Shown one piece after another: positions 584 to 47,241 of a DNA stretch of 52,407 bases. Under the pieces are notes generated by a model. That model ran no database searches and was not told where the DNA came from. It saw only the letters and a list, made by a program, of their open reading frames with translations. The DNA comes from a virus. Where the stretch lies: UHGV virus genome UHGV-0113213; one strand, 5' to 3'. Made by a program: the position numbers and the translations under genes. How positions within the stretch are numbered: position 1 is the first letter of the stretch; every line of letters begins with the position of its first letter.

Positions 584-627
584 CCATTTTGTGATCTGTG
601 TTACATTTCTGGCTTATACAAAATGTA
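584..627. promoter_or_regulatory. divergent promoter region: CRP-like palindrome (590-605) plus CCATTTTGT/TATACAAAATG motif copies
   Basis: TGTGATCTGTGTTACA fits TGTGA-N6-TCACA. About 45 bp is homologous to 12160-12191, upstream of the other lipoprotein moron. Confidence 0.45.
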
Positions 628-721
628 TTTATTGATTTATATCAATATCCGAAATGTTGTTTTGTCGGATATTTAAGCCACCGGATGAACCTGGCGAGCT
701 AACGAGAATGGGGATTCAAAA

Positions 722-970
722 ATGAAAAACATGCTCAAAGTGGTATTATTCGCTGCGGCTGTTGCTCTTACTGGTTGTGCTGTTGACAAAGATGCTGCAT
801 TGCACAACCTGCCAAATAGCGGAGTAATTCCTCAAGAAATTGTCTATGATGCTAATGGTCATCTTGTCTATGACACTGAAAAACTTCCATATACTGGTCA
901 ATGGTGTCATGAACTAGATCACAATATGCGCCGCATCGGTAGCCCGTCGAATTGTGTAGCTAACTACTAA
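722..970 (+). CDS. small lipoprotein (moron; possible Cor-like superinfection exclusion protein)
   Basis: Signal peptide plus lipobox LTGC. Inserted between two tail fibre genes, with its own promoter and terminator. Confidence 0.55.
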   Translation: MKNMLKVVLFAAAVALTGCAVDKDAALHNLPNSGVIPQEIVYDANGHLVYDTEKLPYTGQWCHELDHNMRRIGSPSNCVANY

Positions 971-974
971 AAGA

Positions 975-1003
975 AAACCCCGCGCAAAGCGGGGTTATTT
1001 TTA
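975..1003. terminator. bidirectional rho-independent terminator
   Basis: CCCCGCgcaaaGCGGGG hairpin flanked by A-run and T-run. Confidence 0.7.
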
Positions 1004-4000
1004 TGACCACGATCCAGAGCTTCTTGTGACAAGGACTAGGCCTGGTCTCCTTATTGCCGCTGATGATGTATTTGTGTAGTTTTCTGTAACAGTTACGGAA
1101 ACATGCTGAGATGTAATACCTGAAACACAATGAACGGCAACGTCTGACTTGTGGGGCGTTGATGCCGCCCTTTCTATGTCTATAGTCTTTGAATTTCCGT
1201 TAATGTTTATGGTTACGTTAATGCGTCCCGACTGGTTATATGTATAGTAAGCAAGGTTATAAGGTATCATTACATAAACCGTTTTCGATAAAGCAGATGA
1301 TGATGAATCCCAATAATTTTTGGTTACACTCCTGCTACCTGACCCTGATTGCGCAGGGAATGTTGCCTCTGGAATTACTGACATACTCGCAACGTCACCA
1401 ACAAAGGATGTAGCTTCTACAGTGCCTCTGAATTTACCGTCAGTCGCGTAAACAGTACCGTTAAACACACCAGAATTAGCGTATACCGTGCCGCGTACTG
1501 TAACGTTGTTAAATGTAGCCCAGCCATCTTTAACTATTGCCCAACCTTGATCGCTACCGTTCCAATTGTATGACGTTATGACATTGCCTATTTTTGCATT
1601 GTCGATTGAACCGTCTTTAATAAACGCTTCGCGCACATACATTGCGCCGTTAGTGACATAGAAAGGTGTCTGATATGTGCCGTTTGCGGCAGTCATTAAC
1701 ACGAATCGGTCAACAAGGAAAATGCACTGCGATTGAACATCAGTACCGCTGCCAGTGAGGCCAAGTGACATTCCTGTTGCGTATTTCATACCGTTGTTAT
1801 CAGTGGCAATCTTGATTGAATATGACGCATCAACGTTACCTTTAAAATCGGTTAACGCTTTCGATGTTGTCTCGATCGCTGTTGTGTTTCCGTTAACGGT
1901 CACTTTCAATTGATCAATTTTTGTCGATAATGCCTCATCTGCCGTTGACATGGCCTGCGACCATTCCGTGATGCTTGAGTTTACATCGTCGAAAGATGCC
2001 GATATTTGAACAAATTTTTCAGCACTTGATGCCTCGTGAGTTGCGAGCGCCGTTGATATATCTGTTATTTTTGCTGAAATGTTTTCATTAATATTGGCTT
2101 CAAGTGATGCTATAGCCTCCGCGCGGGCCTGTGTTTCGTCTGCTATTGCTGTGTCAATCCTTGCTATTTCCGCTTTTGTTTTTATCTGGCCTTTCCTGTA
2201 TTTTGCCTCAATAACGGTGCTCATCTTGCTTTGCGCTATTGAGTTGTTGATAAGTGCAATCGAGGCGTTTTGCAGACTTGCTTTCGCCTGTTCTATCTTG
2301 TCACTGTTTTTATCAACATCACTTTCAACAGAACCAAGCTCCGCACTGATGCCTGATATTGCCTGGGCGCGAGCGCTTGATTCGTCGGCGATAGCTTGAT
2401 CAAGGCGGCTAACACTGGCATTTGTGCTATTTTCAAGCGTTGTTAAATCAGCTTTAACATCTGTTATTGCGTCGCTTCTTGCCTGCGTTTCATCTGATAT
2501 TGCTTTATCGAGACGAGAAACGCTCGCGTCAGTTTTGTTTTCCAGGCTGCTGATACTGGCGTTAACGTTGCTTATAGCCTCCGTTCTAGCCTGCGTTTCG
2601 GTTGCGATTGCTTTGTCAACGCGGGCGATTTCCCCTTTGGTGCTGGAGTCCATTGCGTTCATTTCTGCTGTGATGGTTTCCAGTGATTCCGCTGTCGCTT
2701 TTTTCTCATCTGCGATAACGTTGTCGATACGGTCAATCTGTGCCTTTGTTTCGTTGCGACCTTTCTTATATTGAGCGGTAAGAGTAACCCGCGTGTTAGT
2801 TTGAGCAAGCGAGTTGTTGATCAGAGCAAGCGAAGCGTTTTGTAAACTTGCTTTTGTCTGTGCCAGTTCGTTATTAACGTTTTCGTTTGATACCTCTAAT
2901 GAGTCTATTCTTACCTCATGTTTGCCTATTCCATCGGCGTTTTCTTCGACTTTTTTATAAAGGTCTTCGGTGTCTTTTTTAAGTGTATCTGTATCAGCTT
3001 TAAGGCCATCTGTAGCTGTTTTAAGGTCGGCGGTTGCTGTTTTAAGGTCGGCGGTTGCGCTTTCTATAATATCAGTGCGATCACCAAGATCCTTAATATC
3101 ACTTACCAATTCCTTAAATTGCTCTGAGTTCATCACGTCTTTGGTGACATAGTCGCTGATTTCATCGAAGTTTTCAGTTGGCTTACCTGACGCCTCAACG
3201 AAGTCTGACACGCCAAAGGCATTGCGCGTGCGCACATAAACGTAATAAGTATGGCCCGTGTTCATTCCACCGAACGTCCACTGATACCCGCGCCCGGTAA
3301 ACTGCGCAGACGTGGTTATTTTTGCAGGATCTGTAATCTGGTTTTTCCCTGCATAGTAGAACTCATACGCTGTATCAGTTGTTAGCGTTGTTTTGCTTAT
3401 CGGGTACACTGTAGCCTGAAATACACCTGGAACCCAGTTAACGCCTATTGGCGAGGCTGGTGCACCAATAACAAGATCAACAATACTTTCAGCGCCCTTC
3501 ATGCCAGTATCATTTCTTCCGCGAACGCCTAACGAATACGCGCCAGCGTCGATGCCATAAAAATCATAACTGTATTTCGTTGTTTCGTAGCTTTTAACAA
3601 CCGCACCATCTGTGTTATATATGCGGATCTCAAAGGTCATGCGATGTGTTGTTGTCTGTGTCTCCCATGTTGCGCGGCATTGAACCGTTTCAGATCCAAT
3701 GTTTACCACCTTCAGATTTTCAATGCTCGGCACGCGGAAGTGATTAAGCGTGTCGTTGTTGATTTCAAATATAGCGCCTTCATCGACTACTGCTTGTTTG
3801 TTCGGGTCATGTTGCGCTGCTTCGATGGTGTACACGCTGTTGTTTTCAGTTTCTGCTACGCTGATGATTCGACATAAAACGGGTTTTGCAGATTCGGTTG
3901 ATACAGCAAAAACAGTACCGTTCCGAATCCATGCCGGGGCTGCTGCCAGTGTGATTTTGTTCCCGTTAACACCAGTGATCTGATGTTTTTTAAATTTGCC

Positions 4001-5578: not shown

Positions 5579-5592
5579 GGTTAATTCTCCTG

Positions 5593-6123
5593 TTAACTTA
5601 CAACGTCTAAGGCGTCTTTATTGTTTGTTGTGTCTATGCCTAACGATCCGACGTTTGAACCTACTTTCATTTCTCCTAATAGGATTGGCACTGGTCTACC
5701 CTGTCCTACCCTGTTTTCTATGCTGGTGTAAGTGTTATTAGTTATGGTGTTATCCTGCGCGCTTTCTGATGATGTTTTTACCTTCATGTTGCGAGACATA
5801 AAAATAGAAAAAGCGACGCTGACAACTGATATACCAATCATAATCCAGCCAATCACACCAATACCTGCAATACCACCTTCAACTATTGGCGCAATAATTA
5901 CCGTAGTTCCATCTGGATATTTGCTATTAACAGCCGCTGGCGCGGTCTTTTCGTTGTAATCTTTCCCGGCAATTCGTAAGCGCAAAGGTGTATTTAAAAA
6001 CGCCTTTTTAAATTCCTGATTCTGCGCGGTCAATAAGCGAAGCCCTTGCGCTGGCGTTTCAACGTTTAAACACACTTTGCTGTAATATCTTCGAAGATTG
6101 CCCGTAAATCTAAATTTGAGCAT
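5593..6123 (-). CDS. I: tail assembly protein I-like
   Basis: Similarity to lambda gpI; hydrophobic G/A-rich core and C-terminus EMKVGSNV. Confidence 0.7.
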   Translation of the reverse strand: MLKFRFTGNLRRYYSKVCLNVETPAQGLRLLTAQNQEFKKAFLNTPLRLRIAGKDYNEKTAPAAVNSKYPDGTTVIIAPIVEGGIAGIGVIGWIMIGISVVSVAFSIFMSRNMKVKTSSESAQDNTITNNTYTSIENRVGQGRPVPILLGEMKVGSNVGSLGIDTTNNKDALDVVS

Positions 6124-6797: not shown

Positions 6798-6799
6798 GA

Positions 6800-7504: not shown

Positions 7505-7522
7505 TTTCTCACCTTGTCATTC

Positions 7523-7558
7523 TGTGATCTGCGTCACGCTAAATCATACCAAAATGGA
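7523..7558. promoter_or_regulatory. CRP-like palindrome TGTGATCTGCGTCACG plus ATACCAAAATGGA motif
   Basis: The minus-strand reading gives TGgTATGAT, an extended -10 pointing into L. Confidence 0.4.
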
Positions 7559-7633
7559 TTGATCGCGGTTTTTACAATATGTATATTTTACTCAAACGGA
7601 AGCATAGTTAACAAAATGGCGCGGAGGTGCGTT

Positions 7634-9129: not shown

Positions 9130-9172
9130 TTACATTTTGTATATATCTTTACGCGCTTCTACGCGAAAAATA
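9130..9172. promoter_or_regulatory. motif copy TTACATTTTGTATATA plus element TTTACGCGCTTCTACGCGAAAAATA
   Basis: The 25-bp element recurs with 2 mismatches at 21418-21442. Confidence 0.35.
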
Positions 9173-9200
9173 AGATCATTGTCACAATGATTATAGCTAG

Positions 9201-9213
9201 TTTACAAAATGGC
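9201..9213. promoter_or_regulatory. TTTACAAAATGGC motif copy
   Basis: Lies in the divergent region between M and the plus-strand moron. Confidence 0.35.
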
Positions 9214-9455: not shown

Positions 9456-9710
9456 ATGAAACTGGTAGCGATTGACAGAAATCTGAAAGCACAGAAAAAC
9501 GCACAGGACCGGATCATCAAGAAAGGTAAGGAATTACTTAAAGCCTTTCTGAGAAAAGAAGTTTACCCCAAAAAGTTACGCGACGGTTACGGATACAAAA
9601 TGGATATCAATCTTGATTGGAGGCTGTTTAGCGAAGATTTGAAGGTTTGGTTAATTGTTGAGCACCGTGCCTATAACAAGTTATGTGGCGTGAAAGGCAC
9701 TCATAAGTGA
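9456..9710 (+). CDS. hypothetical basic 84 aa protein (moron; possible toxin-like partner)
   Basis: RBS present; K/R-rich; paired with the preceding gene. Confidence 0.45.
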   Translation: MKLVAIDRNLKAQKNAQDRIIKKGKELLKAFLRKEVYPKKLRDGYGYKMDINLDWRLFSEDLKVWLIVEHRAYNKLCGVKGTHK

Positions 9711-12159: not shown

Positions 12160-12219
12160 TGTGATCTGTGTATCTATTTTATACAAAATGGCTTTACTTC
12201 AACGACTCCATTTTGTATA
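12160..12219. promoter_or_regulatory. CRP-like half site plus 40-bp palindrome TATACAAAATGG-N16-CCATTTTGTATA
   Basis: Candidate promoter TTTACT-N17-TATAAG driving the lipoprotein gene at 12267. Confidence 0.45.
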
Positions 12220-12266
12220 AGGAAGCTAAAGGGAATGGTCAGTAAATCAAGTTAGCGTGGTGGGTT

Positions 12267-12926
12267 ATGAAACGGTTAGCAAAAGTGGCAATGATTGCGG
12301 CGGTATTGGGTCTGGTTGGTTGCAATGAGGATAATGAAAAAGCGCCTATAGTGACCAATCAAGAGCAACAAGCATTAGTAGAGAAAAATGCTAAATGGCT
12401 TGCAGAACAACAAGCAAAACAAGCCGCATACGATGCACAGTTAGAAAAAGAAAATGCTGGTAAACAGTGGCTTGTAGTTGAAAGAAAAGATGATATGCAG
12501 GACGCAAAAAACGTATTCCTTTTTGTGAAAGCAGAACAATTCAGCGGAAGTCTTGATGCTTTCCCGACACTGAAGGCACAGGATAAGAATAAACCGGTAT
12601 TAACAATCGCTTGCCAGGGTAATAAAACAAAAATGTTCGTAGCATGGTCACACCATGTAACTGACGCCGGGGACACTACTTATATTAACTACCGGATCGG
12701 CGTTCACAAAGCTGTAGCTACTGAGTGGTGGCGGTCAACTAATTATAAAGCTCTTGGATTATGGGACGGCAAAAAAGCCATCCCAATGATTAAAAAACTG
12801 GTTAACGAAAAACAATTCATCATTGAAGTAGTGCCGGAAGCTGGCGACATTGAGAAAGCAGTGTTTAACATTGATGGTCTTTATAACCACATCGACAAAG
12901 TGAAAAACGCTTGCAACTGGAATTAA
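12267..12926 (+). CDS. lipoprotein (moron)
   Basis: Signal peptide plus LVGC lipobox. Confidence 0.6.
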   Translation: MKRLAKVAMIAAVLGLVGCNEDNEKAPIVTNQEQQALVEKNAKWLAEQQAKQAAYDAQLEKENAGKQWLVVERKDDMQDAKNVFLFVKAEQFSGSLDAFPTLKAQDKNKPVLTIACQGNKTKMFVAWSHHVTDAGDTTYINYRIGVHKAVATEWWRSTNYKALGLWDGKKAIPMIKKLVNEKQFIIEVVPEAGDIEKAVFNIDGLYNHIDKVKNACNWN

Positions 12927-12936
12927 GGGGTAAATC

Positions 12937-13311
12937 ATGAAAAAAATAATCAAAGCGGTTCTCATTGGTGTTATGGCTTTAGCTCTTACAGGGTGCGCAA
13001 GATCAACTGATTTCGTTAAGTTAGCTGATAAAAATTTGCAAGTTGGAATGACTTGTGAGCAAGTGAATAAAATAATGGGGGAACCACAAAGAATCGAGCA
13101 TGACGGTAATTATAGTTATCACGTATGGTATTCAGTAACCAGCACGATAGGATTTACTTACATGGATGTTGAAGAATTATCCCCTTCAAGGGTTATCGCA
13201 AAGTTTGATAACTGCATCCTAAAAGAATGGAAAGATCGCAGTAAGGCAAAGTCTGTATACAATACAATCACACACAGTTCACCAGGTACAGCAATTAAAG
13301 ATTTCAATTAG
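12937..13311 (+). CDS. BamE/SmpA-OmlA-like lipoprotein (moron)
   Basis: LTGC lipobox; GMTCEQVNKIMGEPQ resembles the BamE motif. Confidence 0.5.
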   Translation: MKKIIKAVLIGVMALALTGCARSTDFVKLADKNLQVGMTCEQVNKIMGEPQRIEHDGNYSYHVWYSVTSTIGFTYMDVEELSPSRVIAKFDNCILKEWKDRSKAKSVYNTITHSSPGTAIKDFN

Positions 13312-20077: not shown

Positions 20078-21416
20078 TGTCGTTTTCCTCGTCGTCCAGT
20101 TCTACTTCCTGCGTTGGCCCTTCATACCCGGCAGCCTCGCGGATCTCGTCACCGTCGAATACTTGTTCACCTGTGGCGAGACATGCCTGATTGATTTGCG
20201 CCATTTTGTATGCCGCGTCGAGTAGCTCGGCTTTCGTCATGGCGTTAAGGTCGTCCCACAGTACCGACACGTCGACTGGCATACTGATAAGGCGGAGATC
20301 TGCCATCTTGCGGAATAGTTCCTCAAGCTCGCCTCCTATTTCCTCCCGGCGGGTCATACAGCGGTTATTGAAGTAGCGGAGGTCTTCGGTTGATGCACGC
20401 TCACCCTGCTGATTCCCAACCAGGATACGCGTTGGAATGTCGATACCAGCGGCGGCGGTTTGCAGGTTGACGTCATAGGTAGCTGATGGATCCGCCACGG
20501 CAGTAACCAGCGGGCTAACGGTAGCTCCCTGTAATGCCATCATCACATCATTCCCTTTGTTTATATCCTCTGCCGCTTCATTGAATTTTTCGCGCAGCTC
20601 TGTAACGTCGCAACCGTATGTCGCAGCCAGGGAACGGAAATCAATCTCTTTGTCGAATGAGATAGCTAGTTGACGCGCTGCGTTTTTCAGAAAGGATTCA
20701 CCGCTACCGCCTTCCACTTTCTCCAGCGATACAAAAGCGTTATAGGACGGCTCAAGGAAAGCGATGGCATCATCAGAATAATCACCGAAGATAAATATGC
20801 GATCTGGATGTATCTTTCTTGCTATGGTCTTACTGTTAATGCGCTCCTTGTATTCCCACCATGTCGGCAGGCCATAGCTTTCACTTTCCGGATCTTCTTC
20901 GAAGTCCTTCGGTGTAAGAGCACCAGCCCATACAGGGGTAAATTTGGCAATGCCTACACCTTTCGTCACTGGCTGATCCCACGGCTGGTTATCCCTGACG
21001 TGAATTAACAGGCCAGCATAACGACCAATGAGGCGGCGGCGATCGCATTCAGCTATGACGCGCCAGAAACGATTATCAAATCGTTTTTTGATTTCTCTTT
21101 CCCACGGCGTTTCCTTTTTTGCTTTCTCGTCTTCCGTACCTTCGATCAGCGTTGGCCTGGTGCGCCAGCACGTAGTGATGATCTTCTCAATAGCACCGTG
21201 AGCGATACCACCGCGACGATACAGTTTGTATAAATCGGCATAGGTGATTTCTTCTTTGAATCCGTATTCACTCCACGCAGCATCACGCTTTGCATCAATA
21301 CCCATTGAGAAAGGATGCGCGGCGGCATAGCGTGCAAAGGCCGCCTGACGTTGTGACAAGGCAGCATTAACCGCCAATTCTAAATTGGATGGCATAATGT
21401 TTACTCCTGAATGCAT
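20022..21416 (-). CDS. portal protein
   Basis: 464 aa; lies downstream of TerL. Confidence 0.55.
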   Translation of the reverse strand: MHSGVNIMPSNLELAVNAALSQRQAAFARYAAAHPFSMGIDAKRDAAWSEYGFKEEITYADLYKLYRRGGIAHGAIEKIITTCWRTRPTLIEGTEDEKAKKETPWEREIKKRFDNRFWRVIAECDRRRLIGRYAGLLIHVRDNQPWDQPVTKGVGIAKFTPVWAGALTPKDFEEDPESESYGLPTWWEYKERINSKTIARKIHPDRIFIFGDYSDDAIAFLEPSYNAFVSLEKVEGGSGESFLKNAARQLAISFDKEIDFRSLAATYGCDVTELREKFNEAAEDINKGNDVMMALQGATVSPLVTAVADPSATYDVNLQTAAAGIDIPTRILVGNQQGERASTEDLRYFNNRCMTRREEIGGELEELFRKMADLRLISMPVDVSVLWDDLNAMTKAELLDAAYKMAQINQACLATGEQVFDGDEIREAAGYEGPTQEVELDDEENDNEGEENNQANTSSRDNAI

Positions 21417-28298: not shown

Positions 28299-28577
28299 TT
28301 ATGCCATGCGTGCAAATTCAAGTGATTTGCATTCGTAGTCTTCCTCTGCCTGTTCGATGACTGCCATCATCATTTCGTTTGCGTTGTTGAATGCGTTGCT
28401 TTGTGCGAACTTGTCGGCTCCACCTTCTTCTTCGAACTCCGCGTTGTTTGCTGCAATGTAGTGATATTCGATGTTGTTCAGGTAAGGGCTTGCAGCGTGT
28501 GCTGGGTCTTCTTTCTCCACCATCTCCCAAAATGCGTTTAAGCGAGATTCGACTTCTTTGTTAATCCAGCGTTTCAT
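28299..28577 (-). CDS. hypothetical protein
   Basis: Preceded by a promoter-like site. Confidence 0.4.
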   Translation of the reverse strand: MKRWINKEVESRLNAFWEMVEKEDPAHAASPYLNNIEYHYIAANNAEFEEEGGADKFAQSNAFNNANEMMMAVIEQAEEDYECKSLEFARMA

Positions 28578-28612: not shown

Positions 28613-28674
28613 TTTATAACAAAATGGCACTGCCGAAACAATGCCATTTCGTAAACCTTGTGATACAGATCACA
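28613..28674 (-). promoter_or_regulatory. promoter TTGTTT-N17-TATAAA overlapping motif CCATTTTGTTATAAA; perfect CRP-like site TGTGATACAGATCACA at 28659-28674
   Basis: Read directly from the sequence. Confidence 0.5.
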
Positions 28675-34801: not shown

Positions 34802-34830
34802 AATGCTCTCTCCTTTTCAGGTGATTTCTA

Positions 34831-34863
34831 CGCATTTCAGCGCTGCCGGATTTTTAAAGAGCA
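34831..34863 (-). promoter_or_regulatory. nut-like site: boxA TGCTCTTTAAAAATCCGG plus boxB-like hairpin CGCTGAAATGCG
   Basis: The boxA matches the nutR candidate (43322-43339) base for base over 18 nt. Confidence 0.55.
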
Positions 34864-34879
34864 TTTTGTTTGCTTGAAG

Positions 34880-34959
34880 TATACAAAATGGATACCCCCA
34901 AACAAGGCAAAAAGCGCCATTATGTGATCCGCATCACGCAATGATGCCATTTTGTAAAC
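34880..34959. promoter_or_regulatory. promoter region: TATACAAAATGGA ... CRP-like TGTGATCCGCATCAC ... CCATTTTGTAAAC
   Basis: Inverted motif pair flanks the palindrome. The minus-strand reading gives -10 TATACT. Confidence 0.45.
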
Positions 34960-34960
34960 T

Positions 34961-37745: not shown

Positions 37746-37929
37746 GAGTTTTTAAATAACCCCTTCTGAATGCTTTGATGTAAAGTCCTAGCCTTCTTAT
37801 ATGCTGAACGCCATCAATGATGCGCACTAAATAAATTGCACCGTTTGTGTCAGATACAAAATGACAGCCAAAACCAATACCAACCAACTTCAGGTTGTCA
37901 GGTATTCTATAATCAGTTTTCTGTTCCAT
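37735..37929 (-). CDS. hypothetical protein
   Basis: ORF. Confidence 0.3.
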   Translation of the reverse strand: MEQKTDYRIPDNLKLVGIGFGCHFVSDTNGAIYLVRIIDGVQHIRRLGLYIKAFRRGYLKTHEI

Positions 37930-38027: not shown

Positions 38028-38246
38028 TTAAGCCTCAATAACACCGTAATCGAACGTGCCTAAATACCGTTCGATACTTACAACCTCAATACCATCAATG
38101 CACCGTTTCCACACAGACACCTGGCTTTCATTTTCTCTGAAGTGCATATTAGAAAGCACTTCATCGGCTGGGTAGCCTTTCCCGGCGACGTAGGCATCGT
38201 GACCTACGCCACCTTCTACGCAATAAAGCATCAATTCGCGTTCCAT
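38028..38246 (-). CDS. hypothetical protein
   Basis: Internal start MERELM has an RBS. Confidence 0.35.
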   Translation of the reverse strand: MERELMLYCVEGGVGHDAYVAGKGYPADEVLSNMHFRENESQVSVWKRCIDGIEVVSIERYLGTFDYGVIEA

Positions 38247-38282
38247 CTTGTTTCCTCCGTGCCGTAAACCTCTTAATTTCAG

Positions 38283-38340
38283 TTTACAAAACGGATATGC
38301 GATCGCAATACAAAATGTATATTTATGTGATCGCAATCAC
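38283..38340. promoter_or_regulatory. motif copies TTTACAAAACGG / ATACAAAATGTA plus CRP-like TGTGATCGCAATCAC
   Basis: Read directly from the sequence. Confidence 0.4.
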
Positions 38341-38344
38341 GCTG

Positions 38345-39872: not shown

Positions 39873-39875
39873 AAC

Positions 39876-39995
39876 TCACCCCAACAATGCAACAATTAAT
39901 TCAGCAATAAAAACGGCGACATAAAAAGAAGCTGTGATATAAATCACCCCAATAACGAAGGCGGCGGCTAATGCCGCAATTTTTACCATGCTCAT
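39876..39995 (-). CDS. 39 aa hydrophobic peptide MSMVKIAALAAAFVIGVIYITASFYVAVFIAELIVALLG
   Basis: RBS GGAGGCTGATAA. Confidence 0.45.
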   Translation of the reverse strand: MSMVKIAALAAAFVIGVIYITASFYVAVFIAELIVALLG

Positions 39996-40509: not shown

Positions 40510-40524
40510 CGCTAACCTATTGGA

Positions 40525-41573: not shown

Positions 41574-41689
41574 TTAATCTCCCGTGCTGTTAACACTATG
41601 TATAAGGCTTTATTCGCGGCGCTCCACATTTCGGCATCGTGAAGCATTTCCGCTACTGCCAGTTTGAATTGAAGCGCCTGAATAACCAT
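41570..41689 (-). CDS. hypothetical 39 aa protein
   Basis: RBS GGAG; coupled to erf. Confidence 0.35.
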
Positions 41690-41719
41690 AATGTCATCTC
41701 CGGATGTTTACATTTTGTA

Positions 41720-42010
41720 TTAATGGTAGCGGACTTTATCCAGGGGTTTTTCCCCTAAATGGCGTGGTTGCGTTGCGTGGTAGTAGCTGCCGCTTTCATT
41801 TTCCGTATACCATTTTACTGATCCTTTGCGACGTTCTTTAATGCTATTTGGTTTGCATCTTTCCTCGTTTGCAAATCGAATAGCTTTATCCACATTGTCT
41901 GTTTTATTGATTGCAGGTGATGATTTTCTTTCGTTTTCTCTTTTTATCCTTCTGCGTTCCCTGGCATTCATTTTGCTATCACATTTACCATATATAATTG
42001 TAACGCTCAT
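41720..42010 (-). CDS. N: N-like antitermination protein
   Basis: Arginine-rich motif NARERRRIKRENERK; first gene downstream of the pL candidate and a nutL-like boxA. Confidence 0.55.
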   Translation of the reverse strand: MSVTIIYGKCDSKMNARERRRIKRENERKSSPAINKTDNVDKAIRFANEERCKPNSIKERRKGSVKWYTENESGSYYHATQPRHLGEKPLDKVRYH

Positions 42011-42299
42011 AATCTGATCTCCGTATATCCTTGATGATACTTAATAAAAAATCATCTTCGTTAATTGCCGCACTTCCAGCGGCTGACCAGATTGTTAATG
42101 AGCGGCTTAACATCTTTCAACTAATCCCGCAATCATCGCCGTTCCCGGCGTGACCTTGCTCACTCCAAGCAAGCTGACTCGTCGCCTTGCGTGCGGTTTC
42201 GTGGGGGATGTAACGCTTTAAACACCCCATGCGCCTTGTTATCAGTGCCGCTTTCGGTCCCCCATCGGGGAGTTACTCCACGGTTGACAAGGTGTTAAG

Positions 42300-42317
42300 C
42301 CTGATTTTTAAAGTGCC
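42300..42317 (-). promoter_or_regulatory. nutL-like boxA GGCACTTTAAAAATCAGG
   Basis: 15/18 match to the other two boxA copies. No clear boxB; a TCCCCGATGGGGGA hairpin lies ~35 nt downstream. Confidence 0.35.
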
Positions 42318-42349
42318 AGGAAGTTGCTTTTGTTACCTGCGCCCTTCCT

Positions 42350-42387
42350 TTGACTCGCAATATACGCCCCGTAAAACATCGAGTCAA
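42350..42387 (-). promoter_or_regulatory. pL candidate TTGACT-N17-TATATT inside an inverted repeat TTGACTCG-N22-CGAGTCAA
   Basis: Near-consensus sigma70 promoter on the minus strand. Motif copy TCCATTTTGTATAC lies just upstream. Confidence 0.5.
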
Positions 42388-42477
42388 TCCATTTTGTATA
42401 CTTTTTTAAAATATTTTATATGCCATTGATATTTAAATAATAAATAACGTTTTCTGTTTACGTTTTGGTGTTTTCCA

Positions 42478-42504
42478 GGCAAAGAAAAGCCGCCATTCGG
42501 CGGC
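42478..42504 (-). terminator. terminator after cI
   Basis: GCCGCCGAATGGCGGC followed by TTTTCTTT on the minus strand. Confidence 0.65.
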
Positions 42505-42510
42505 TAATGT

Positions 42511-43158
42511 TTATGGCAGGTTTACGATCTTCGCATCAACCACCACGCCTATAATTTTTGATTCTGGATTCATAGGGATTGGCGGATACAGCGGATTGAG
42601 CGAACGTAAAAGCCTTTGACCTCCATCAATAATCAACTGTTTAAACGTCGGTATCTGCCCTTCCTCAAGCTGGGCTATAACCAGTTTGCCGTCAATAGCT
42701 GGCGCGTGCGGGTCCACAAGTATCATCGTCCCCGCCGGGATGCTCAACCCCTGCGGCGCGTTCATTGATTCACCTTTGGCAACCAGCCAGTAACTGTCAT
42801 CTGAACAAATAACGCTAGTCGTAACGTGTCGTAATGCTGAACGCCTTGCGTCATCCATATTGTTTACTGTGTCCTTCCAGTCAATAACCGGGTAACTACC
42901 TAAATCACGCGGCGGCACGGCCTGAAGTGTATTAGAAACAGAATCATCAATGACCATGCCATCATGTGTAACAGTAAACTGCCGACGACCAAGCTCGCGC
43001 ATAATCCGCGCAATATCTTCAAGATTTGGCTCTCGGCGACCGTTCAGCCAGTGTGACAGGCCGCCTTTAGTTATCCCCATACGATCCGCGAGTGAATCCT
43101 GGCTCATGCCCTGCGCCCGCATGAGCTGCTTTGCTAAGTCATACCATTTTGTTTTCAT
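42511..43158 (-). CDS. cI: CI-like repressor (HTH_XRE + S24 LexA-like peptidase)
   Basis: N-terminal HTH (QDSLADRMGITKGGLSHWLNG); C-terminal SMN...G and K dyad consistent with the S24 family. Confidence 0.8.
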   Translation of the reverse strand: MKTKWYDLAKQLMRAQGMSQDSLADRMGITKGGLSHWLNGRREPNLEDIARIMRELGRRQFTVTHDGMVIDDSVSNTLQAVPPRDLGSYPVIDWKDTVNNMDDARRSALRHVTTSVICSDDSYWLVAKGESMNAPQGLSIPAGTMILVDPHAPAIDGKLVIAQLEEGQIPTFKQLIIDGGQRLLRSLNPLYPPIPMNPESKIIGVVVDAKIVNLP

Positions 43159-43189
43159 GTCGCTACCCTATAACCTCAAAAAGTTTGAT

Positions 43190-43282
43190 GCAAGTCACAA
43201 AACGTGTATTTTAAGCCTTGATCTTAAAATTCCATTTTGTAAACTTGCAGACAAGGTAAGGCCATACTTGCAAAGACGCAAG
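43190..43282. promoter_or_regulatory. OR-like region: pR candidate TTGATC-N16-TAAACT with operator-like palindromes CTTGCAGACAAG and CTTGCAAAGACGCAAG; motif copy TCCATTTTGTAAAC
   Basis: The CTTGC/GCAAG half-site recurs four times between cI and the first rightward gene. Confidence 0.4.
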
Positions 43283-43321
43283 GAAAAAGATAACGGAAGG
43301 CACAAAAAGGCACTTACCTTA

Positions 43322-43355
43322 TGCTCTTTAAAAATCCGGTGTCGCTGCGAAGCGA
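43322..43355 (+). promoter_or_regulatory. nutR candidate: boxA TGCTCTTTAAAAATCCGG plus boxB hairpin TCGCTGCGAAGCGA
   Basis: Consensus boxA (CGCTCTTTA-like), with a stem-loop 3 nt downstream. Confidence 0.55.
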
Positions 43356-43463
43356 AAAACAAATATCACGCAACGGCGGGATCTGTTGAGCGGTCAGTCA
43401 CTGCTATCTAATGCTAATGGGATGCCCGCCCGCGCGTTCACTCTAACCATAGGAGAAAATGCG

Positions 43464-43730
43464 ATGAGTATAAACATGATTAGTAAAGCATGGAACGTAA
43501 AACTTAATAGCCCGATTCAAAAACTTGTCTTAATGGCTCTGGCTGAAAAGGCAGATAACAAAGGACGGGTACATGATGCATCACGCAAAGAAGTAGCCGC
43601 AATGTGTGAACTTCCTGTTCATACGGTACATGATGCCTTCGCCGCGTTAATGGATAAAGGATTTGTTTGTCGTCTTGATGCATTCAGTGATGTCTATGTA
43701 GTGATGTTGCCGGGGGGGGATGATCTATGA
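43464..43730 (+). CDS. winged-HTH protein resembling the N-terminal DNA-binding domain of replication protein O
   Basis: KLVLMALAEKADNKGRVHDASRKEVAAMCELPVHTVHDAF resembles lambda O residues ~50-100. RBS AGGAGAAAATGCG. Confidence 0.45.
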   Translation: MSINMISKAWNVKLNSPIQKLVLMALAEKADNKGRVHDASRKEVAAMCELPVHTVHDAFAALMDKGFVCRLDAFSDVYVVMLPGGDDL

Positions 43731-44773
43731 AGTGGTTTAAGCATGACAGCGATGCGAACCGCGATGAAAAACTTCAAAACGTTTTGTTAGATTATGGCCT
43801 GGAAGGGTACGGGCTTTATTGGTATTGCCTCGAACTAATAACTTATGACGTAGATCAGCACAATCTGAATTTTGACCTACGACATGACGCGAGAATCATT
43901 GCGCGAAACGTCGGATCGACTGAAAAACGTATAGAAGAAATGATGAAATACTTCATCGAAATTGGTTTGTTTGAATGTTCTCAAGGCCACATAACTTGTT
44001 TAAAGTTATTGAAAAGGCTTGATCAATCAATGACTTCTAAAAGCGCGTACAGGGCCGCCATAAACACAGCTAAGGAGCAATTAAAATTAGAAAAGTTAAT
44101 CAATCCAACACAAAAAGGTCATGATAGGGTCATGACCGGGTCAGGAAAGGGTCATGAATTAGAAGTAGAAGAAGAAAGAGAAAAAGATATATACACTTCG
44201 TGTATTGTCGAAAATGAACAAAAAATGTTCAATCGGGATGGCGTAAACGAAGCGGCATTGCGTTGTCTTTCCTTCTACAACGACAAGGCAGGATGCAAAT
44301 GTCGTGATGCGAAGCCATTCATAGAACTACTGACAGAAACAAAAACACGTAAAGCATATACTGAGGAAGAAATCACATTAGTAATCGAGTGGGCTTTAAC
44401 GCAATGGCGTAGCCGTGGTGGAACACCTAAGCCTATCAACATTTGCCGGGTAACTAAATTTGATGGGTATCTGGCTGATGCTGAACAATGGCGCAAACTG
44501 TCAGCCACTGCAAACGCTGCCGATGTGGTGGAAGCATTTAACAGCACGTTTGACGGTCTGTTACCACATGCCGAACTGGATCGGGATCTTGAACGTAAGA
44601 TCTATGCGTTCACTGACTACCTGAAAGACAAAAGCATCACTGGCTTTATTGCTTACTTTGAGGCGTTCAAAAACACGGCTTCAGATTTTTACTTCGGCAA
44701 TGGCTTTACTGCGACACTGGATTTTCTACTTAAACCAAAAACGCTACGTGATACACGATGTGGCGCTCTTTGA
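43727..44773 (+). CDS. replisome organiser / replication initiation protein (Phage_rep_org_N-like)
   Basis: MKWFKHDSDANRDEKL N-terminus; iterons embedded in the linker region. Confidence 0.55.
   Translation: MKWFKHDSDANRDEKLQNVLLDYGLEGYGLYWYCLELITYDVDQHNLNFDLRHDARIIARNVGSTEKRIEEMMKYFIEIGLFECSQGHITCLKLLKRLDQSMTSKSAYRAAINTAKEQLKLEKLINPTQKGHDRVMTGSGKGHELEVEEEREKDIYTSCIVENEQKMFNRDGVNEAALRCLSFYNDKAGCKCRDAKPFIELLTETKTRKAYTEEEITLVIEWALTQWRSRGGTPKPINICRVTKFDGYLADAEQWRKLSATANAADVVEAFNSTFDGLLPHAELDRDLERKIYAFTDYLKDKSITGFIAYFEAFKNTASDFYFGNGFTATLDFLLKPKTLRDTRCGAL
44117..44200. promoter_or_regulatory. candidate replication origin: four GGTCATGA iterons at 11-bp spacing, then an AT/purine-rich tract
   Basis: Iterons at 44117, 44128, 44139 (degenerate) and 44150; followed by agaagtagaagaagaaagagaaaaagatatata. 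Confidence 0.5.
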
Positions 44774-44905
44774 CCAATCACGATCCGCAAAAATCCAAAA
44801 TTACCCACAAACAACCTCACCAGCTAGCTAAATCGCATGTGGTGCTACACTTGCTTACCTTTTTGCGATTAGCTCGTTATAGAGCGTTACAGAGAGGATT
44901 TTAAA

Positions 44906-45007
44906 ATGGACGGTAAACACGTTTTCGCCCTGGCTTTTGCCATCGCTGCGGCAATCGCTGTTAACGTCGCCTTGTTCGGCGGATTGTATCTGCTAGTTAA
45001 TCCATAA
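44906..45007 (+). CDS. 33 aa hydrophobic peptide MDGKHVFALAFAIAAAIAVNVALFGGLYLLVNP
   Basis: RBS AGAGGA; fills an intergenic gap. Confidence 0.35.
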   Translation: MDGKHVFALAFAIAAAIAVNVALFGGLYLLVNP

Positions 45008-45147
45008 CTACCCTTCTACCTTAAAAATCGAAAATTAGCCACATGATTGCGCTTCTGGCGCAAAAAAGACACTGCAACCTTACAAGTGGGTTACGCGGTG
45101 GGTTTTTGCGTTGTAGCGCGTCTGAGGCGTTTTAAGGAGTTGGATCG

Positions 45148-46071
45148 ATGCGCAAGTTAACACATGATGAACAGGTTGCGGCTATCGCTAAGGTTAATCA
45201 TGATGTCGAAGTGCTTGGGGAAATTGTCAATAACAGGACAAAAGTATCCTGCCGCTGCAAGGTTTGCAGTCACGAATGGTCGGCTAGACCTTACAATCTT
45301 AAAAGCGGTTACGGCTGCCCGAAATGCGCCGGAAAGATGAAATTATCACACGAAGAACAGGTTGCCGCTATCGAGAAGGTTAATTCTGATGTCGAAGTGA
45401 TTGGCGAAATAATAAACGGCGATACAAAAGCATTATGCCGCTGCAAAGTTTGTAATCACGAATGGTCGGCTAAACCTAACAACCTAAAAAACGGGCGCGG
45501 CTGCCCGAAATGTAAAGGTTTAAAAATCGCACAAAGACGAACATTATCACACGAAGAACATTTATCCGCTATCACTAAGGTAAATCATGATATTGAAGTA
45601 TTGGGAGAAATAATAAACGATAGGACAAAAGTATTATGTCGATGCAAGGTTTGTGATCATAAGTGGTCGCCTAGACCTTATGCTATTAAAAGCGGGCAAG
45701 GCTGCCCGAAATGTGCGAAACACGGTTTTTTGTCACACAATTTCGGCAAACTTTACATCATGGTTGATGATCCTGAAGTGCCTACACAAATGAAAATCGG
45801 CGTAAGCGTTAATGAGAACAAGCGAAGAAATCGGGTATTAAAAAGCGCACATAAATCAGGCGTTAGAATCCCTGATTTATGTGTCGTGAAAACGTTAGAA
45901 GGTCCAACCGAAAATATCCATGAATTAGAAAGCACGATGCATAAATATTTCAGCAATTATAAAATTAACTTTCCTGTAAAATTTGATGGCAGTAATGAGT
46001 TTTTCTATTACAGGCCGGAAGTATTCGACATGGTAGAAGAAGCATATAAAGAGATTGTTTGCTGTCAATGA
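45148..46071 (+). CDS. protein with 3 tandem zinc-ribbon repeats plus C-terminal GIY-YIG/T5orf172-like domain
   Basis: Three copies of CRCKVCxHEWS..P...K.G.GCPKC; C-terminus GKLYIMVDD...MKIGVS. Confidence 0.5.
   Translation: MRKLTHDEQVAAIAKVNHDVEVLGEIVNNRTKVSCRCKVCSHEWSARPYNLKSGYGCPKCAGKMKLSHEEQVAAIEKVNSDVEVIGEIINGDTKALCRCKVCNHEWSAKPNNLKNGRGCPKCKGLKIAQRRTLSHEEHLSAITKVNHDIEVLGEIINDRTKVLCRCKVCDHKWSPRPYAIKSGQGCPKCAKHGFLSHNFGKLYIMVDDPEVPTQMKIGVSVNENKRRNRVLKSAHKSGVRIPDLCVVKTLEGPTENIHELESTMHKYFSNYKINFPVKFDGSNEFFYYRPEVFDMVEEAYKEIVCCQ
45157..45729. repeat. three ~190-200 bp tandem repeats (zinc-ribbon units)
   Basis: Protein-level triplication mirrored in the DNA. Confidence 0.6.
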
Positions 46072-46104
46072 ATATACAAAATGTAAACATGAGGAAATAA
46101 CAAC

Positions 46105-47223
46105 ATGTCACAAAGAAAGATAAGCGATGAGCAATTGATCGCTGAATATAACAACGGTTTAACGTACAAGCAGATCGCTGAAAAATATGGCATGTCAAAA
46201 CGCAACGTCGAGCGCCTGGGCGCAAAGCTGGCGAAACGCGGTTTAATATCCACGCGTCGCGCGCCGGGTTTTGGCGTCAATGGCGAGTCATTGCTAGTTG
46301 ATAAGGATGGCAATGTGATTATGCGCTGGATTAAAACAGCCCGTGATCGCGATGAAATGGAAAGGCTAATGCAAGCGGCTTGCGATGCTTTCACGGAAGA
46401 CATGCCACGCGCTGAGGCTGTGCCAGTGCCGGAAATTGATTTCCAAAAAAGCCTGGCTCTTTATCCGGTATTCGATCTGCATATCGGTGCGCTTGCGCAT
46501 AAAGCTGAATGCGGTGAGAGCTACGACACCGGGATCGCCGAACGTGTGTTAAATGACTTCTTCGACTACGCGGTGGGCGCTGCGCCAATGTCTGAAAAGG
46601 CTGTTTTGTTGTTAGGAGGTGATATTCTTCACACTGACGGCCTGTTACCAGTGACGCCATCAAGCAATCACGTCCTGGATTGCGATTCACGCTACGCAAA
46701 ACTGGTTTACGTGGCGATCCGGTCGGTCCGGCGTGCGGTCGGGAAGATGTTACTAAATCATAAGTATGTCGAGATCCAGACATTATCCGGTAATCACGAC
46801 CAATCAGGGATGATCTGGCTACGTGCGGCGCTGGCGGCTTTTTACGAAGATGAACCGCGCGTAACTGTTGATGTGTCCCCTGCTATCGTTCACCACACAC
46901 AGTACGGCAAAACATTCCTTGCTTACCACCACGGACACACCATCAAAAAACCAGAAAATTTGTTGTCTGCCTGCGTCTCTGACTGGCGGGAGGATTTCGG
47001 CAAGTCGTCGGCGGTTTACGCTCATTGCGGACACTGGCATCACCAACGGCTGATTGAATCATCGTTAGGCGTTGTTGAGTATCACGGCACGTTAGCTGGC
47101 AAAGACGCTTATTCAACAAATGGCGGCTGGCGGTCGCGTCGGCTGGCTGCGGTAATAATTTACAGTCCTGATCATGGGGAAATCGGGCGCTTTGTTTATT
47201 ACCCTGAATATTCCATTTTGTAA
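46105..47223 (+). CDS. HTH plus calcineurin-like metallophosphoesterase fusion protein
   Basis: N-terminal HTH (LTYKQIAEKYGMSKRNVERL). Phosphoesterase motifs DLHIG, GGDILH, GNHD, HHGH, GHWHH. Confidence 0.5.
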   Translation: MSQRKISDEQLIAEYNNGLTYKQIAEKYGMSKRNVERLGAKLAKRGLISTRRAPGFGVNGESLLVDKDGNVIMRWIKTARDRDEMERLMQAACDAFTEDMPRAEAVPVPEIDFQKSLALYPVFDLHIGALAHKAECGESYDTGIAERVLNDFFDYAVGAAPMSEKAVLLLGGDILHTDGLLPVTPSSNHVLDCDSRYAKLVYVAIRSVRRAVGKMLLNHKYVEIQTLSGNHDQSGMIWLRAALAAFYEDEPRVTVDVSPAIVHHTQYGKTFLAYHHGHTIKKPENLLSACVSDWREDFGKSSAVYAHCGHWHHQRLIESSLGVVEYHGTLAGKDAYSTNGGWRSRRLAAVIIYSPDHGEIGRFVYYPEYSIL

Positions 47224-47241
47224 ACCGGAGGCGATACCATA

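Follow-up and report, generated by a model that had tools for sequence, protein, structure and literature searches.

A dispersed intergenic motif in a temperate coliphage of the mEpimmI group is probably the operator of its CI-type repressor

Introduction

To our knowledge, the CI-type repressors of the textbooks act at OL and OR only. Immunity repressors of other kinds have sites throughout the genome. P1 C1 has 22 dispersed operators with a 17-bp consensus that control separate operons (PMC8546580). In the Cluster A mycobacteriophages L5 and TipsytheTRex, a 13-mer recurs more than 20 times over the genome, in promoters and in the short gaps between genes; these operators and "stoperators" have been proposed to act on initiation as well as elongation and so keep the prophage silent, and their orientation strictly follows the direction of transcription (PMC9283540). 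In one collection of Nus-dependent temperate coliphages from human faeces, about half belonged to the mEpimmI group, and a single protein, Rep021, was shown to give immunity; the operators were not defined in this, the only genomic paper on the group (PMC11893012).

We analyzed a DNA stretch of 52,407 nucleotides, here called the window, that represents a temperate coliphage belonging to the mEp021/"mEpimmI" group. It carries a motif, CCATTTTGTA(A/T)AC, at about 25 sites genome-wide, often on top of promoters. The original prediction, made from the letters alone, offered two readings of this motif, a dispersed promoter family that re-initiates transcription or the operator of an unidentified regulator. 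We propose, and consider it likely, that this motif serves as operator for the lambda-CI-type repressor that the phage itself encodes, a member of the Rep021 family with HTH_3 and S24 domains.

Results

The motif is enriched in intergenic DNA

The core CATTTTGTA occurs exactly 16 times in the window, against 1.1 (1.11) expected, and 12 of these cores fall in intergenic DNA, which makes up 9% of the window. Enrichment was corrected for AT content by dinucleotide shuffling, with intergenic and coding DNA handled separately: the 12 intergenic cores compare with 0.12 expected in composition-matched shuffles (about 100-fold), and 4 cores in coding DNA with 0.5 expected, so the intergenic excess does not disappear once AT content is accounted for. 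The motif is real and enriched between genes, as had been claimed. Longer forms behave similarly, with 8 exact copies of CCATTTTGTAWA (expectation 0.01), 36 at up to two mismatches (14.7 expected), and 19 matches to a 14-bp PWM at 14 bits or more (0.58 in shuffles). Among 17 orthologous sites in relatives, motif positions 1–13 are all conserved above the flanks.

A recognizable copy was found, within a few bases, at all 19 of the coordinates first listed. Degenerate among them are the copies at 584, 7546, 28616–28627 (given as 28620–28629), 38307–38318 (given as 38308–38319) and 41710–41721 (given as 41706–41726). That list did not include 34917–34930, 7517–7530, the OR2-like copy at 43192–43205 or the dyad at 42362–42374 over the pL −10. 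The statement that every copy is intergenic or at a gene junction holds for most; exceptions are three exact cores within ORFs (9594–9602, 20202–20210, 37855–37863) and further PWM matches at 2835, 16306 and 42855. What had been described as a 40-bp palindrome at 12180–12219 is in fact a 16-bp spacer, itself not palindromic, flanked by perfect inverted arms of 12 bp each, a geometry seen again at 28616/28644.

Putative operators in the immunity region

The repressor gene lies between the two early promoters, and its product has lambda CI as top PDB match (E 1.4e-20). The features of this region are as follows.

42359–42387, minus strand: pL, TTGACT, 17 bp, TATATT (from sequence), followed by nut boxA at 42300–42316
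42362–42374: putative OL1, dyad ATAC-GCCCC-GTAA over the pL −10 and spacer; axis 42368
42389–42402, plus strand: putative OL2, CCATTTTGTATACT, adjoining the pL −35 and inverted relative to pL (from sequence); axis 42393
42511–43158, minus strand: rep, CI-like immunity repressor (HTH_3 plus Peptidase_S24; Pfam, PDB), proposed binder of the motif
43165–43193, minus strand: candidate pRM, TTGCAT (43193–43188), 17 bp, TAGGGT (43170–43165), from reading the sequence and from sister-clade alignment
43192–43205, minus strand: OR2-like degenerate copy, ACGTTTTGTGACTT, kept in relatives; axis 43201
43219–43245: pR, TTGATC (43219–43224), 16 bp, TAAACT (43240–43245), then a nut site at 43322–43358
43232–43245, plus strand: putative OR1, CCATTTTGTAAACT, over the pR spacer and −10 (from sequence); dyad axis 43236

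Besides nut boxA, the motif is the sole sequence common to the pL and pR regions, and its copies overlap or adjoin the elements of both promoters. At pL, the hexamers are conserved among relatives, OL2 is unchanged across 30 or more of them, and OL1, whose axis is 25 bp from that of OL2, retains its arms (GTAA, GTGA or GTAT) around a variable center. At OR, two sites are recognizable in the window, not three. The OR2-like copy is 35 bp from OR1, adjoins the −35 of the candidate pRM, and corresponds by homology to TATACATTTTGTGTCT, which is the canonical middle operator in related immunity regions. The candidate pRM would yield a leaderless rep mRNA. No Cro homologue was found in the window phage, and no Cro gene follows pR.

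Site architecture and spacing

The candidate Rep operator is about 17 bp long and consists of a consensus half (GTAWAC), an A/T-rich center (ATTTT) and a deviant half (nnCC); the operators of lambda likewise combine a consensus half with a non-consensus half. Predicted Rep021 operator sequences include CCATTTTGTAWAC and ATACATTTTGTAT. In phages with Rep homologues the family consensus, ATAC-N5-GTAT, is a clear dyad. Within the window, perfect ATAC-ATTTT-GTAT dyads are present at axes 622 and 38314, and most other copies have a poor left arm because CC stands where the family dyad has AC or TAC, leaving 3–6 of 8 arm bases matched. Dyad symmetry judged from the window only is weak, with 55% complementarity at the best axis. 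The 8-base dyad pattern by itself is not enriched in the window (24 found, 24.3 expected); the signal also depends on the A/T center.

Sites in the window recur as pairs with axes 25 bp apart (42368/42393, 12187/12212, 28623/28648, 7553/7578) or 32–35 bp apart (43201/43236, 34887/34921, 7521/7553, 588/622). These spacings match those of canonical OL/OR arrays in phages with Rep homologues.

The sites track the recognition helix of the repressor

The motif is lineage-specific: 120 cores were counted in 497 kb of mEpimmI tail loci, whereas 774 kb from other enterobacterial phages that have a homologous tail gene contained none. A sister clade, whose proteins are 50–72% identical to those of the window and whose DNA is mostly unalignable, retains it at about 16 intergenic copies per 20 kb, three of them in the 124-bp rep-cro gap. 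Rep residues 27–45 of this clade, the helix-turn-helix, are identical to those of the window Rep, versus about 49% identity in the C-terminal domain.

Six unrelated lambdoid or myovirus backbones encode Rep homologues that are 40–51% identical, with a similar recognition helix, and have (T)ATAC-N5-GTAT dyads around rep; 24 of the 26 best matches lie in the immunity region. Four of these loci have three dyads in the cro-rep gap, spaced 33 and 26 bp apart, and the others have one or two; OL holds two or three, spaced 30–45 and 25 bp. A P22-C2-type control with a different recognition helix has no such dyads and has P22-type repeats instead. The sites thus track the recognition helix through the sister clade and the six backbones, a co-occurrence that does not separate Rep from a Cro-type partner using the same sites. 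Based on rep-linked arrays in the Rep-homologue backbones and their absence from the P22-C2-type control, the window motif is likely to be a CI-type operator. Of the two original readings, the operator of a regulator appears the better supported, given that the motif is the one element shared by pL and pR and co-occurs with the repressor helix-turn-helix across backbones. These comparisons also support naming the regulator as a CI-like repressor of the Rep021 family.

Copies outside the immunity region

At least 20 operator-like copies, from 555 to 50178, lie beyond the immunity region. They are given here as predicted operators, together with the palindromes that accompany some of them.

555–568, plus strand: weak copy CCATTATGTTAATT
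584–597, plus strand: variant CCATTTTGTGATCT, axis 588, running into a palindrome at 590–605
613–626, minus strand: ATAC-ATTTT-GTAT, a perfect dyad (axis 622) that faces the start of the tail-fibre gene (546)
7517–7530, plus strand: variant TCATTCTGTGATCT, axis 7521, overlapping the next palindrome
7523–7538: palindrome TGTGATCTGCGTCACG, upstream of the 7582 promoter
7544–7557, minus strand: degenerate copy CCATTTTGGTATGA, axis 7553, 25 bp from axis 7578
7572–7584: dyad TTAC-AATAT-GTAT, axis 7578, over a promoter (TTGATC at 7559–7564, 17 bp, TATATT at 7582–7587)
7606–7619, minus strand: CCATTTTGTTAACT, beside the ribosome-binding site of cargo gene 7634
9132–9145, plus strand: TTAC-ATTTT-GTAT, facing cargo gene 9283; conserved
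9199–9212, minus strand: CCATTTTGTAAACT, facing tail gene M (start 9115), with TATAAT 7 nt downstream
12178–12191, minus strand: copy facing the tape-measure gene start (12139), one arm of an inverted pair
12208–12221, plus strand: copy over the −10 of the promoter (TTTACT, 17 bp, TATAAG) of opposite-strand cargo genes 12267–13311; axis 25 bp from that of its partner at 12178–12191
28614–28627, minus strand: copy over the −10 of the promoter (TTGTTT, 16 bp) of gene 28299–28577
28644–28657, plus strand: CCATTTCGTAAACC, inverted partner of the preceding copy; axes 28623/28648, 25 bp apart
28659–28674: perfect TGTGA-N6-TCACA (CRP-box-like); the 28616 promoter has its −10 about 47.5 bp downstream
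34878–34891, minus strand: copy over the −10 of a secondary early promoter (TTGTTT, 16 bp, TATACT), followed by nutR2 at about 34829–34863, a position that agrees with PMC11893012
34917–34930, plus strand: variant CCATTATGTGATCC, axis 34921, overlapping the left half of the next palindrome
34923–34938: palindrome TGTGATCCGCATCACG; the 34880 promoter has its −10 about 47.5 bp downstream
34947–34960, plus strand: copy adjoining the stop codon of the cytosine-methyltransferase gene and facing incoming transcription
38281–38294, minus strand: CCGTTTTGTAAACT, over the −10 of the promoter (TTGCGA, 16 bp, TAAACT) of gene 38028–38237
38305–38318, minus strand: ATAC-ATTTT-GTAT, a perfect dyad (axis 38314) that lies upstream of the preceding copy by 24 bp
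38326–38341: palindrome TGTGATCGCAATCACG; the 38283 promoter has its −10 about 47.5 bp downstream
41710–41723, plus strand: TTAC-ATTTT-GTAT, in the 28-bp gap after the N-like gp17 gene; conserved
46071–46084, minus strand: TTAC-ATTTT-GTAT, between two rightward replication-region genes, directly upstream of an antisense TTGACA, 16 bp, TATGCT
47213–47226, plus strand: CCATTTTGTAAACC, overlapping the stop of gene 46105–47223, 14 nt before the helicase ATG
50165–50178, plus strand: weak copy GAATTTTGTATAAG; some relatives have an exact core here

Comparison with relatives bears on several of these. The T-to-A change at position 6 of CCATTATGTGATCC is also tolerated in the pR copies of relatives. 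At 12208 the promoter region is retained as a socket with different cargo, at 7606–7619 homology ends at the CC edge of the motif, and at 47213 the copy is retained where the upstream gene differs. The junction copies at 47213, 46071 and 41710 count against the operator reading, which does not account for their roles.

The palindromes resemble CRP boxes. TGTGA-N6-TCACA at up to one mismatch is found at 9 sites versus 1.4 expected, and at five promoters the palindrome center is 47.5–48.5 bp upstream of the −10, with unrelated intervening sequence. Four of seven palindromes overlap operator variants of the GTGA type. At 34923–34938 the arms are conserved in relatives and the center is variable; the sister clade has one such palindrome only. 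The close consensus match likens these sites to class I CRP promoters of the lac P1 type, in which the center is at −61.5, whereas the predicted center here is −59.5 to −60.5.

Discussion

Alternative readings of the motif

The motif could instead be the conserved spacer and −10 core of a sigma70 promoter family that restarts transcription after cargo islands and module boundaries and has no dedicated binder. Six copies do share one architecture, with an upstream palindrome, TTGnnn and the motif over spacer and −10 all in register; about half of the copies end in TAWACT, which retains the critical T−12, A−11 and T−7, and four copies face late genes directly after opposite-strand cargo islands. 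The originally described TTGnnn about 17 bp upstream is present, at 16–17 bp from the −10-like end, for about six copies (43232, 34880, 38283, 28616, 12208 and 7574) and not for the remaining 15 or so. Other observations fit this explanation poorly. Of the 11 orientation-informative copies, those in co-directional intergenic regions, six are co-oriented with the downstream gene and five are anti-oriented. The supposed spacer half, CCATTTTG, is conserved at 0.94–1.00 across orthologous sites, no less than the −10-like half. At pL the copy is inverted and upstream of the −35; at 47213, where it stands 14 nt before the start codon, any transcript it could start would begin after the ribosome-binding site, with no space left for another; and at 7608 relatives keep CCATTTTGT but have TTGACC in place of the −10-like part. 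Related sequences in other phages are moreover restricted to classical operator arrays around rep. The promoter-family reading is right in part, in that six copies share a promoter architecture; as the explanation of the motif it is unlikely.

Equally improbable, in our assessment, is a binder other than the immunity repressor, such as a host protein or a Cro-like or architectural phage protein, acting as activator or insulator. An inverted copy at −50 to −37, a typical activator position, is found at pL and three other promoters, more than 40 small phage proteins are without annotation, and CI operators are normally also used by Cro-type proteins. Nevertheless, the unrelated loci that bear sites share only the Rep homologue and, mostly, a small HTH_3 Cro-like gene, and the window phage keeps its sites though it lacks the latter; absence of the motif from the 774 kb of other enterobacterial phage DNA makes a general host factor unlikely. 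A third possibility, that the motif is a recombination boundary sequence for swapping cargo and modules and only secondarily regulatory, draws on the observation that upstream of L, the tape-measure gene and the helicase gene homology ends at or within a few bases of the motif edges, with different genes on the far side. Yet 13–17 bp is short for homologous exchange, the motif is also at pL and pR, where no mosaic joint was seen, and the rep-linked arrays of other phages are left unexplained. Joints beside conserved regulatory elements are expected in any case, because only recombinants retaining those elements survive. We consider this possibility very improbable.

A model for Rep action

With the motif read as the Rep operator, we propose that Rep dimers at OL1/OL2 and OR1/OR2, probably binding cooperatively, would shut pL and pR. 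Rep at OR2, beside the likely pRM −35, might activate pRM, as in lambda. Some 20 further copies, mostly in pairs or triplets at spacings of about 25 and 32–35 bp, would place Rep on the −10 of secondary early promoters (one with nutR2 downstream), at the four cargo ("moron") islands that the tail operon carries on the opposite strand, within their divergent control regions, and, in a few cases, at gene junctions in the replication and early-left operons. We infer that these dispersed copies would silence every secondary promoter prophage-wide and possibly road-block read-through.

It is also possible that a CI-type repressor here became a genome-wide silencer, with operator sets at OL/OR spacing copied to every secondary promoter, including four cargo sockets of the tail operon; we offer this tentatively, as slightly more apt to be wrong than right. 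If it is true, about a dozen transcription units would take their state from a single protein, which might in addition stop read-through at gene junctions and, from −43, activate some cargo promoters in the lysogen. Several promoters would also read cAMP-CRP through the overlapping palindromes, which, if confirmed, would link gut-phage lytic promoters to host carbon status. The regulatory logic would be P1- or L5-like, evolved independently on a lambdoid chassis.

For the mEpimmI group, the outcome is a predicted operator sequence, positions for pL, pR and a likely pRM, and an expectation of where virulent mutations should map. Classical lambdoid relatives in Citrobacter, Enterobacter, Serratia and Tatumella hold the sites at rep, whereas the mEpimmI and sister clades have dispersed them, a distribution that could show the passage from a local switch to a global regulon. 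The coincidence of mosaic breakpoints with the edges of the predicted operators suggests that regulated "sockets" organize the exchange of cargo genes.

Comparison with known systems

The closest likeness is to the CI/Cro operators of lambda, 434 and P22. The window repressor is a true lambda CI homologue; the wider family arranges its dyads of about 17 bp in the manner of OL1–3/OR1–3, as a set of three in the rep-cro gap and a further two or three at pL; and the window sites cover the −10 of pR and pL, with one adjoining the likely pRM −35. Lambda-type operators stay in the immunity region, however, whereas the window phage has about 20 extra copies over its early, replication and tail regions, two recognizable OR sites rather than three, and no Cro gene after pR. 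With P1 C1 it shares many operators genome-wide, but C1 has no relationship to CI/LexA-type proteins and uses an asymmetric operator, whereas the window repressor contains an S24 domain and its predicted site is a dyad, though a degenerate one. The L5 stoperators are similar in that about 25 window copies occupy promoters and short intergenic gaps genome-wide; they differ in orientation, which is unbiased in the window (6 versus 5), and in their repressor, a monomer with two DNA-binding domains on an asymmetric site, whereas the window Rep is homologous to the dimeric lambda CI and its predicted site is a degenerate dyad.

Genome context and the immunity repressor

The 52.4-kb window represents a temperate siphovirus belonging to the mEp021/"mEpimmI" group of E. 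coli phages; most of it is 84-90% identical to mEp010, mEp021 and MagusPhagus. A replication operon runs rightward, and a very long series of genes runs leftward, comprising the N-like gp17, recombination genes, methylases, a Q-like gene, and lysis, head and tail genes, the last interrupted by four short cargo islands on the opposite strand. The repressor gene is

42511-43158, minus strand: rep, CI-like, with HTH_3 and Peptidase_S24 domains; closest solved structure, lambda CI

The only genomic paper on the group shows that the repressor Rep021 by itself confers immunity and maps three nut sites; it leaves operators and promoters undefined and does not mention the motif (PMC11893012). Among 5,426 complete E. 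coli genomes, 35 carry the immunity region (42300-43470; query coverage of 80% or more, identity 80-99.9%), in each case as a single chromosomal copy. The first pR gene (43464-43730, plus strand) is not a Cro: its 88-residue product matches only the N-terminal origin-binding domain of O-like replication initiators, and a PDB search with it gave no meaningful match. No Cro homologue follows pR or occurs elsewhere in the window, and Pfam and PHROGs scans of the cargo genes and ten small early genes returned nothing useful as a second DNA-binding protein.

Motif enrichment and conservation

The intergenic excess by which the original prediction was to be judged persists once AT content is corrected for. 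When intergenic and coding DNA were shuffled separately, using a gene list curated by hand, the 4.7 kb of intergenic DNA (41% G+C) held 12 copies of the core CATTTTGTA against 0.12 expected and the coding DNA 4 against 0.5, so that AT-richness does not account for the enrichment. Over the whole window the core occurs 16 times (1.1 expected) and CCATTTTGTAWA in 8 exact copies (0.01 expected). Every position listed in that prediction holds a copy, some of them degenerate; its claim that all are intergenic or at gene junctions was too broad, with a few lying within ORFs, and its 40-bp palindrome resolves into a pair of perfect 12-bp arms with 16 bp of non-palindromic spacer between them. A full-text literature search with the motif strings matched only unrelated primers.

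Tail-region loci of mEpimmI-type contigs (497 kb) hold 120 copies of the core, whereas loci of other phages whose tail protein M is 67-71% identical (774 kb) hold 0; in IMG/VR the inverted pair is confined to mEpimmI contigs, apart from two unrelated single matches. Alignment of 17 orthologous sites in up to 35 distinct relatives gives identities of 0.94-1.00 at motif positions 1-13 and approximately 0.8-0.9 in the flanks, and the would-be promoter-spacer half, CCATTTTG, is conserved no less than the -10-like half. Because these relatives are close, conservation within the group is only moderately informative, and the sister clade and unrelated backbones weigh most.

Promoter family or protein-binding site

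Six copies share a promoter architecture in which a TGTGA-N6-TCACA-like palindrome lies upstream, a TTGnnn hexamer lies 16-17 bp upstream and the motif covers the spacer and -10:

43232: pR
34880: promoter, followed by nutR2
38283 and 28616: promoters
12208 and 7574/7582: two cargo promoters

To this extent the proposal of a dispersed promoter family is partly right, but the remaining copies depart from it. In intergenic regions between co-directional genes, orientation relative to the downstream gene fits in 6 copies and fails in 5. The pL copy at 42389 is inverted and adjoins, on its upstream side, the -35 of TTGACT-17-TATATT, a promoter both strong and conserved; the copy at 47213 lies 14 nt ahead of the ATG of the helicase gene, whose ribosome-binding site would precede any start of transcription; and at 7608 the -10-like part shifts to TTGACC in relatives while CCATTTTGT is retained. 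Besides the nut boxA, the motif is the sole sequence of at least 9 bases common to the pL and pR control regions, the pattern to be expected if the single immunity repressor uses it as operator. The other reading offered at the outset, the operator of a phage regulator, is favored by this sharing, by the sister clade and by the rep-linked arrays of unrelated backbones, all sequence comparisons that point to Rep.

Among other explanations, none of the consensus sites of IHF, Fis, DnaA, LexA, TyrR, OmpR, PhoP, CpxR, AraC or MarA fits the motif, and its absence from the other-phage DNA also argues against a host-factor site. A Q-binding element with a pause site is ruled out by the copies at pR and upstream of promoters, and a miniature inverted-repeat element by the occurrence of both end-out and end-in pairs (34880/34947 versus 9132/9201). 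An RNA element is ruled out as well, with no Rfam match in the window and copies in both orientations relative to transcription.

The upstream palindromes merit separate consideration. At up to one mismatch, TGTGA-N6-TCACA occurs 9 times in the window versus 1.4 expected; such palindromes lie at

590-605, 7523-7538, 12160-12175, 28659-28674, 34923-34938, 38326-38341 and 43184-43199

At five motif-bearing promoters their centers fall 47.5-48.5 bp upstream of the -10, the intervening sequences being unrelated, and in relatives the arms are conserved and the centers variable. They resemble class I CRP sites in consensus and geometry, a reading that we hold with moderate confidence. The predicted center is 1-2 bp short of -61.5, and a CRP reading of all of them is weakened by the overlap of 4 of the 7 with GTGA-type operator variants and by the presence of only one such palindrome in the sister clade.

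The motif travels with the repressor

A search with Rep identified a sister clade (P0008, 55% identical) of approximately 52-kb contigs with the gene order of the window, whose proteins are 50-72% identical and whose DNA is mostly unalignable. This clade keeps the motif: of 18 relaxed-core copies in 20 kb, approximately 16 are intergenic, and these include three between rep and cro, in a gap of 124 bp, and another two after rep. Residues 27-45 of Rep (MGITKGGLSHWLNGRREPN, the helix-turn-helix) are identical between the two clades; the C-terminal domain is approximately 49% identical. The sister clade also carries a separate Cro-like HTH_3 gene (75 aa; locus L151, 9649-9876) at the position of the first pR gene.

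Homologues that are 40-51% identical to Rep and resemble it in the recognition helix are found in backbones of quite another kind:

Lambdoid prophages of Citrobacter/Enterobacter type, which encode a DEAD helicase and a primase
A myovirus-like contig
Tatumella and Serratia lambdoid prophages, which encode CII, O, DnaB and N

Related sites here have the form (T)ATAC-N5-GTAT (TATACATTTTGTAT, TATACATATCGTAT and TATACGGATTGTAT are examples) and are restricted to the immunity region, where 24 of the 26 best matches lie. Four loci have three sites in the cro-rep gap, with axes (dyad centers) 33 and 26 bp apart, and others have one or two; the leftward promoter has two or three, at spacings of 30-45 and 25 bp. 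In a P22-C2-type control, whose recognition helix differs, there are P22-type repeats and no (T)ATAC-N5-GTAT site, and homologues at 38% identity (L047-L049) show neither the motif nor an alternative repeat. These arrays have the classical lambdoid OR/OL layout and travel with the Rep family, although a Cro-type partner using the same sites cannot be formally told apart from Rep by such comparison.

Anatomy and spacing of the sites

We read the motif as nnCC-ATTTT-GTAW-AC, with a consensus right half-site, an A/T center and a left half-site that departs from ATAC. In the window alone, a dyad-symmetry scan gives no more than a weak axis, at motif position 5; in the light of the dyad in the wider Rep family, this is the family axis. 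The ACATTTTGTAT copies at axes 622 and 38314 are perfect dyads. Further elements of the immunity region are

42362-42374: second predicted pL operator, ATAC-GCCCC-GTAA over the -10 and spacer, 25 bp from the 42389 copy
43192-43205, minus strand: degenerate copy between pR and rep (OR2), in which ACGTTTTGTGACTT matches the canonical middle operator TATACATTTTGTGTCT
43165-43193, minus strand: candidate pRM, TTGCAT-17-TAGGGT, aligning with TTGAAT-17-TAGGAT of the sister clade

In relatives the second pL site retains its arms (GTAA, GTGA or GTAT) around a variable center. OR2 is 35 bp from OR1, the pR copy, and adjoins the candidate pRM. In lambda, the pRM transcript begins at the cI ATG and is leaderless; a transcript from the candidate pRM would plausibly begin at the rep ATG in the same manner. 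Axes of the dispersed pairs, three of them corrected by hand, are 25 bp (12187/12212, 28623/28648, 7553/7578), 24 bp (38290/38314) or 32-34 bp (7521/7553, 34887/34921, 588/622) apart.

Several other sequences lie near these sites. The motif-like CCATTTTGTTTTCA over the first rep codons (43144-43157) may reflect coding constraint rather than a site, since the N-terminus (MKTKW/MKW) is conserved throughout the Rep family. Between the rep terminator and OL2, the pL copy at 42389, CCAAAACGTAAAC (42457-42469, minus strand) is invariant in relatives and resembles the motif in its outer bases, with an inverted center. A perfect 8-bp inverted repeat, TTGACTCG (42350-42357) and CGAGTCAA (42380-42387), surrounds the pL spacer, its left arm missing from some relatives. 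Just 3' of the pR -10 are two small conserved palindromes, CTTGCAGACAAG (43244-43255) and CTTGCAAAGACGCAAG (43267-43282), without counterpart at pL. The perfect 17-bp palindrome ATCATTGTCACAATGAT (9175-9191), between copies 9132 and 9201, is not conserved, relatives reading GTGACGAAGATC, GTGATGAATTTC and others. Directly downstream of operator copy 46071-46084, a strong promoter-like TTGACA-16-TATGCT (46041-46068, minus strand), antisense within the 3' end of gene 45148-46071, could drive an oop-like transcript.

Mosaic breakpoints

Homology between relatives ends at motif edges, or a few bases from them, in the regions upstream of the L, tape-measure and helicase genes:

7606-7633, 12208-12235 and 47190-47226: breakpoints, in relatives L054, L058, L071, L072, L077-L079, L002 and L027

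Past these points the cargo or upstream genes differ among the relatives, so that the control regions bearing operators behave as conserved sockets for exchangeable cargo.

Proposed mechanism and known systems

The enrichment, conservation and distribution of the motif, and its co-occurrence with the repressor, are documented in this analysis. We propose that the motif sites are occupied by Rep dimers, with probable cooperativity between paired sites. Dimers bound at pL and pR would block RNA polymerase, and Rep at OR2 may stimulate pRM. The extra copies would bring every secondary promoter under Rep control, namely the nutR2 promoter towards Q, those at 38283 and 28616, and the divergent control regions of the four tail-operon cargo islands. 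Copies at gene junctions (41710, 46071 and 47213) may serve as road-blocks, or may govern antisense or minor promoters.

Four features place the motif with CI-type operators, namely that it co-occurs with the repressor, forms arrays of their layout, overlaps promoters and shares the dyad of the family, but unlike them it is not confined to the immunity region. Dispersed networks are known from P1, where C1 has 22 asymmetric 17-bp operators (PMC8546580), and from L5-type mycobacteriophages, where a monomeric repressor uses more than 20 asymmetric 13-mers in an orientation-dependent manner (PMC9283540). The window motif would likewise work as a dispersed operator network; it is not a member of either class, because its protein is CI-like, its dyad degenerate and its orientation unbiased.
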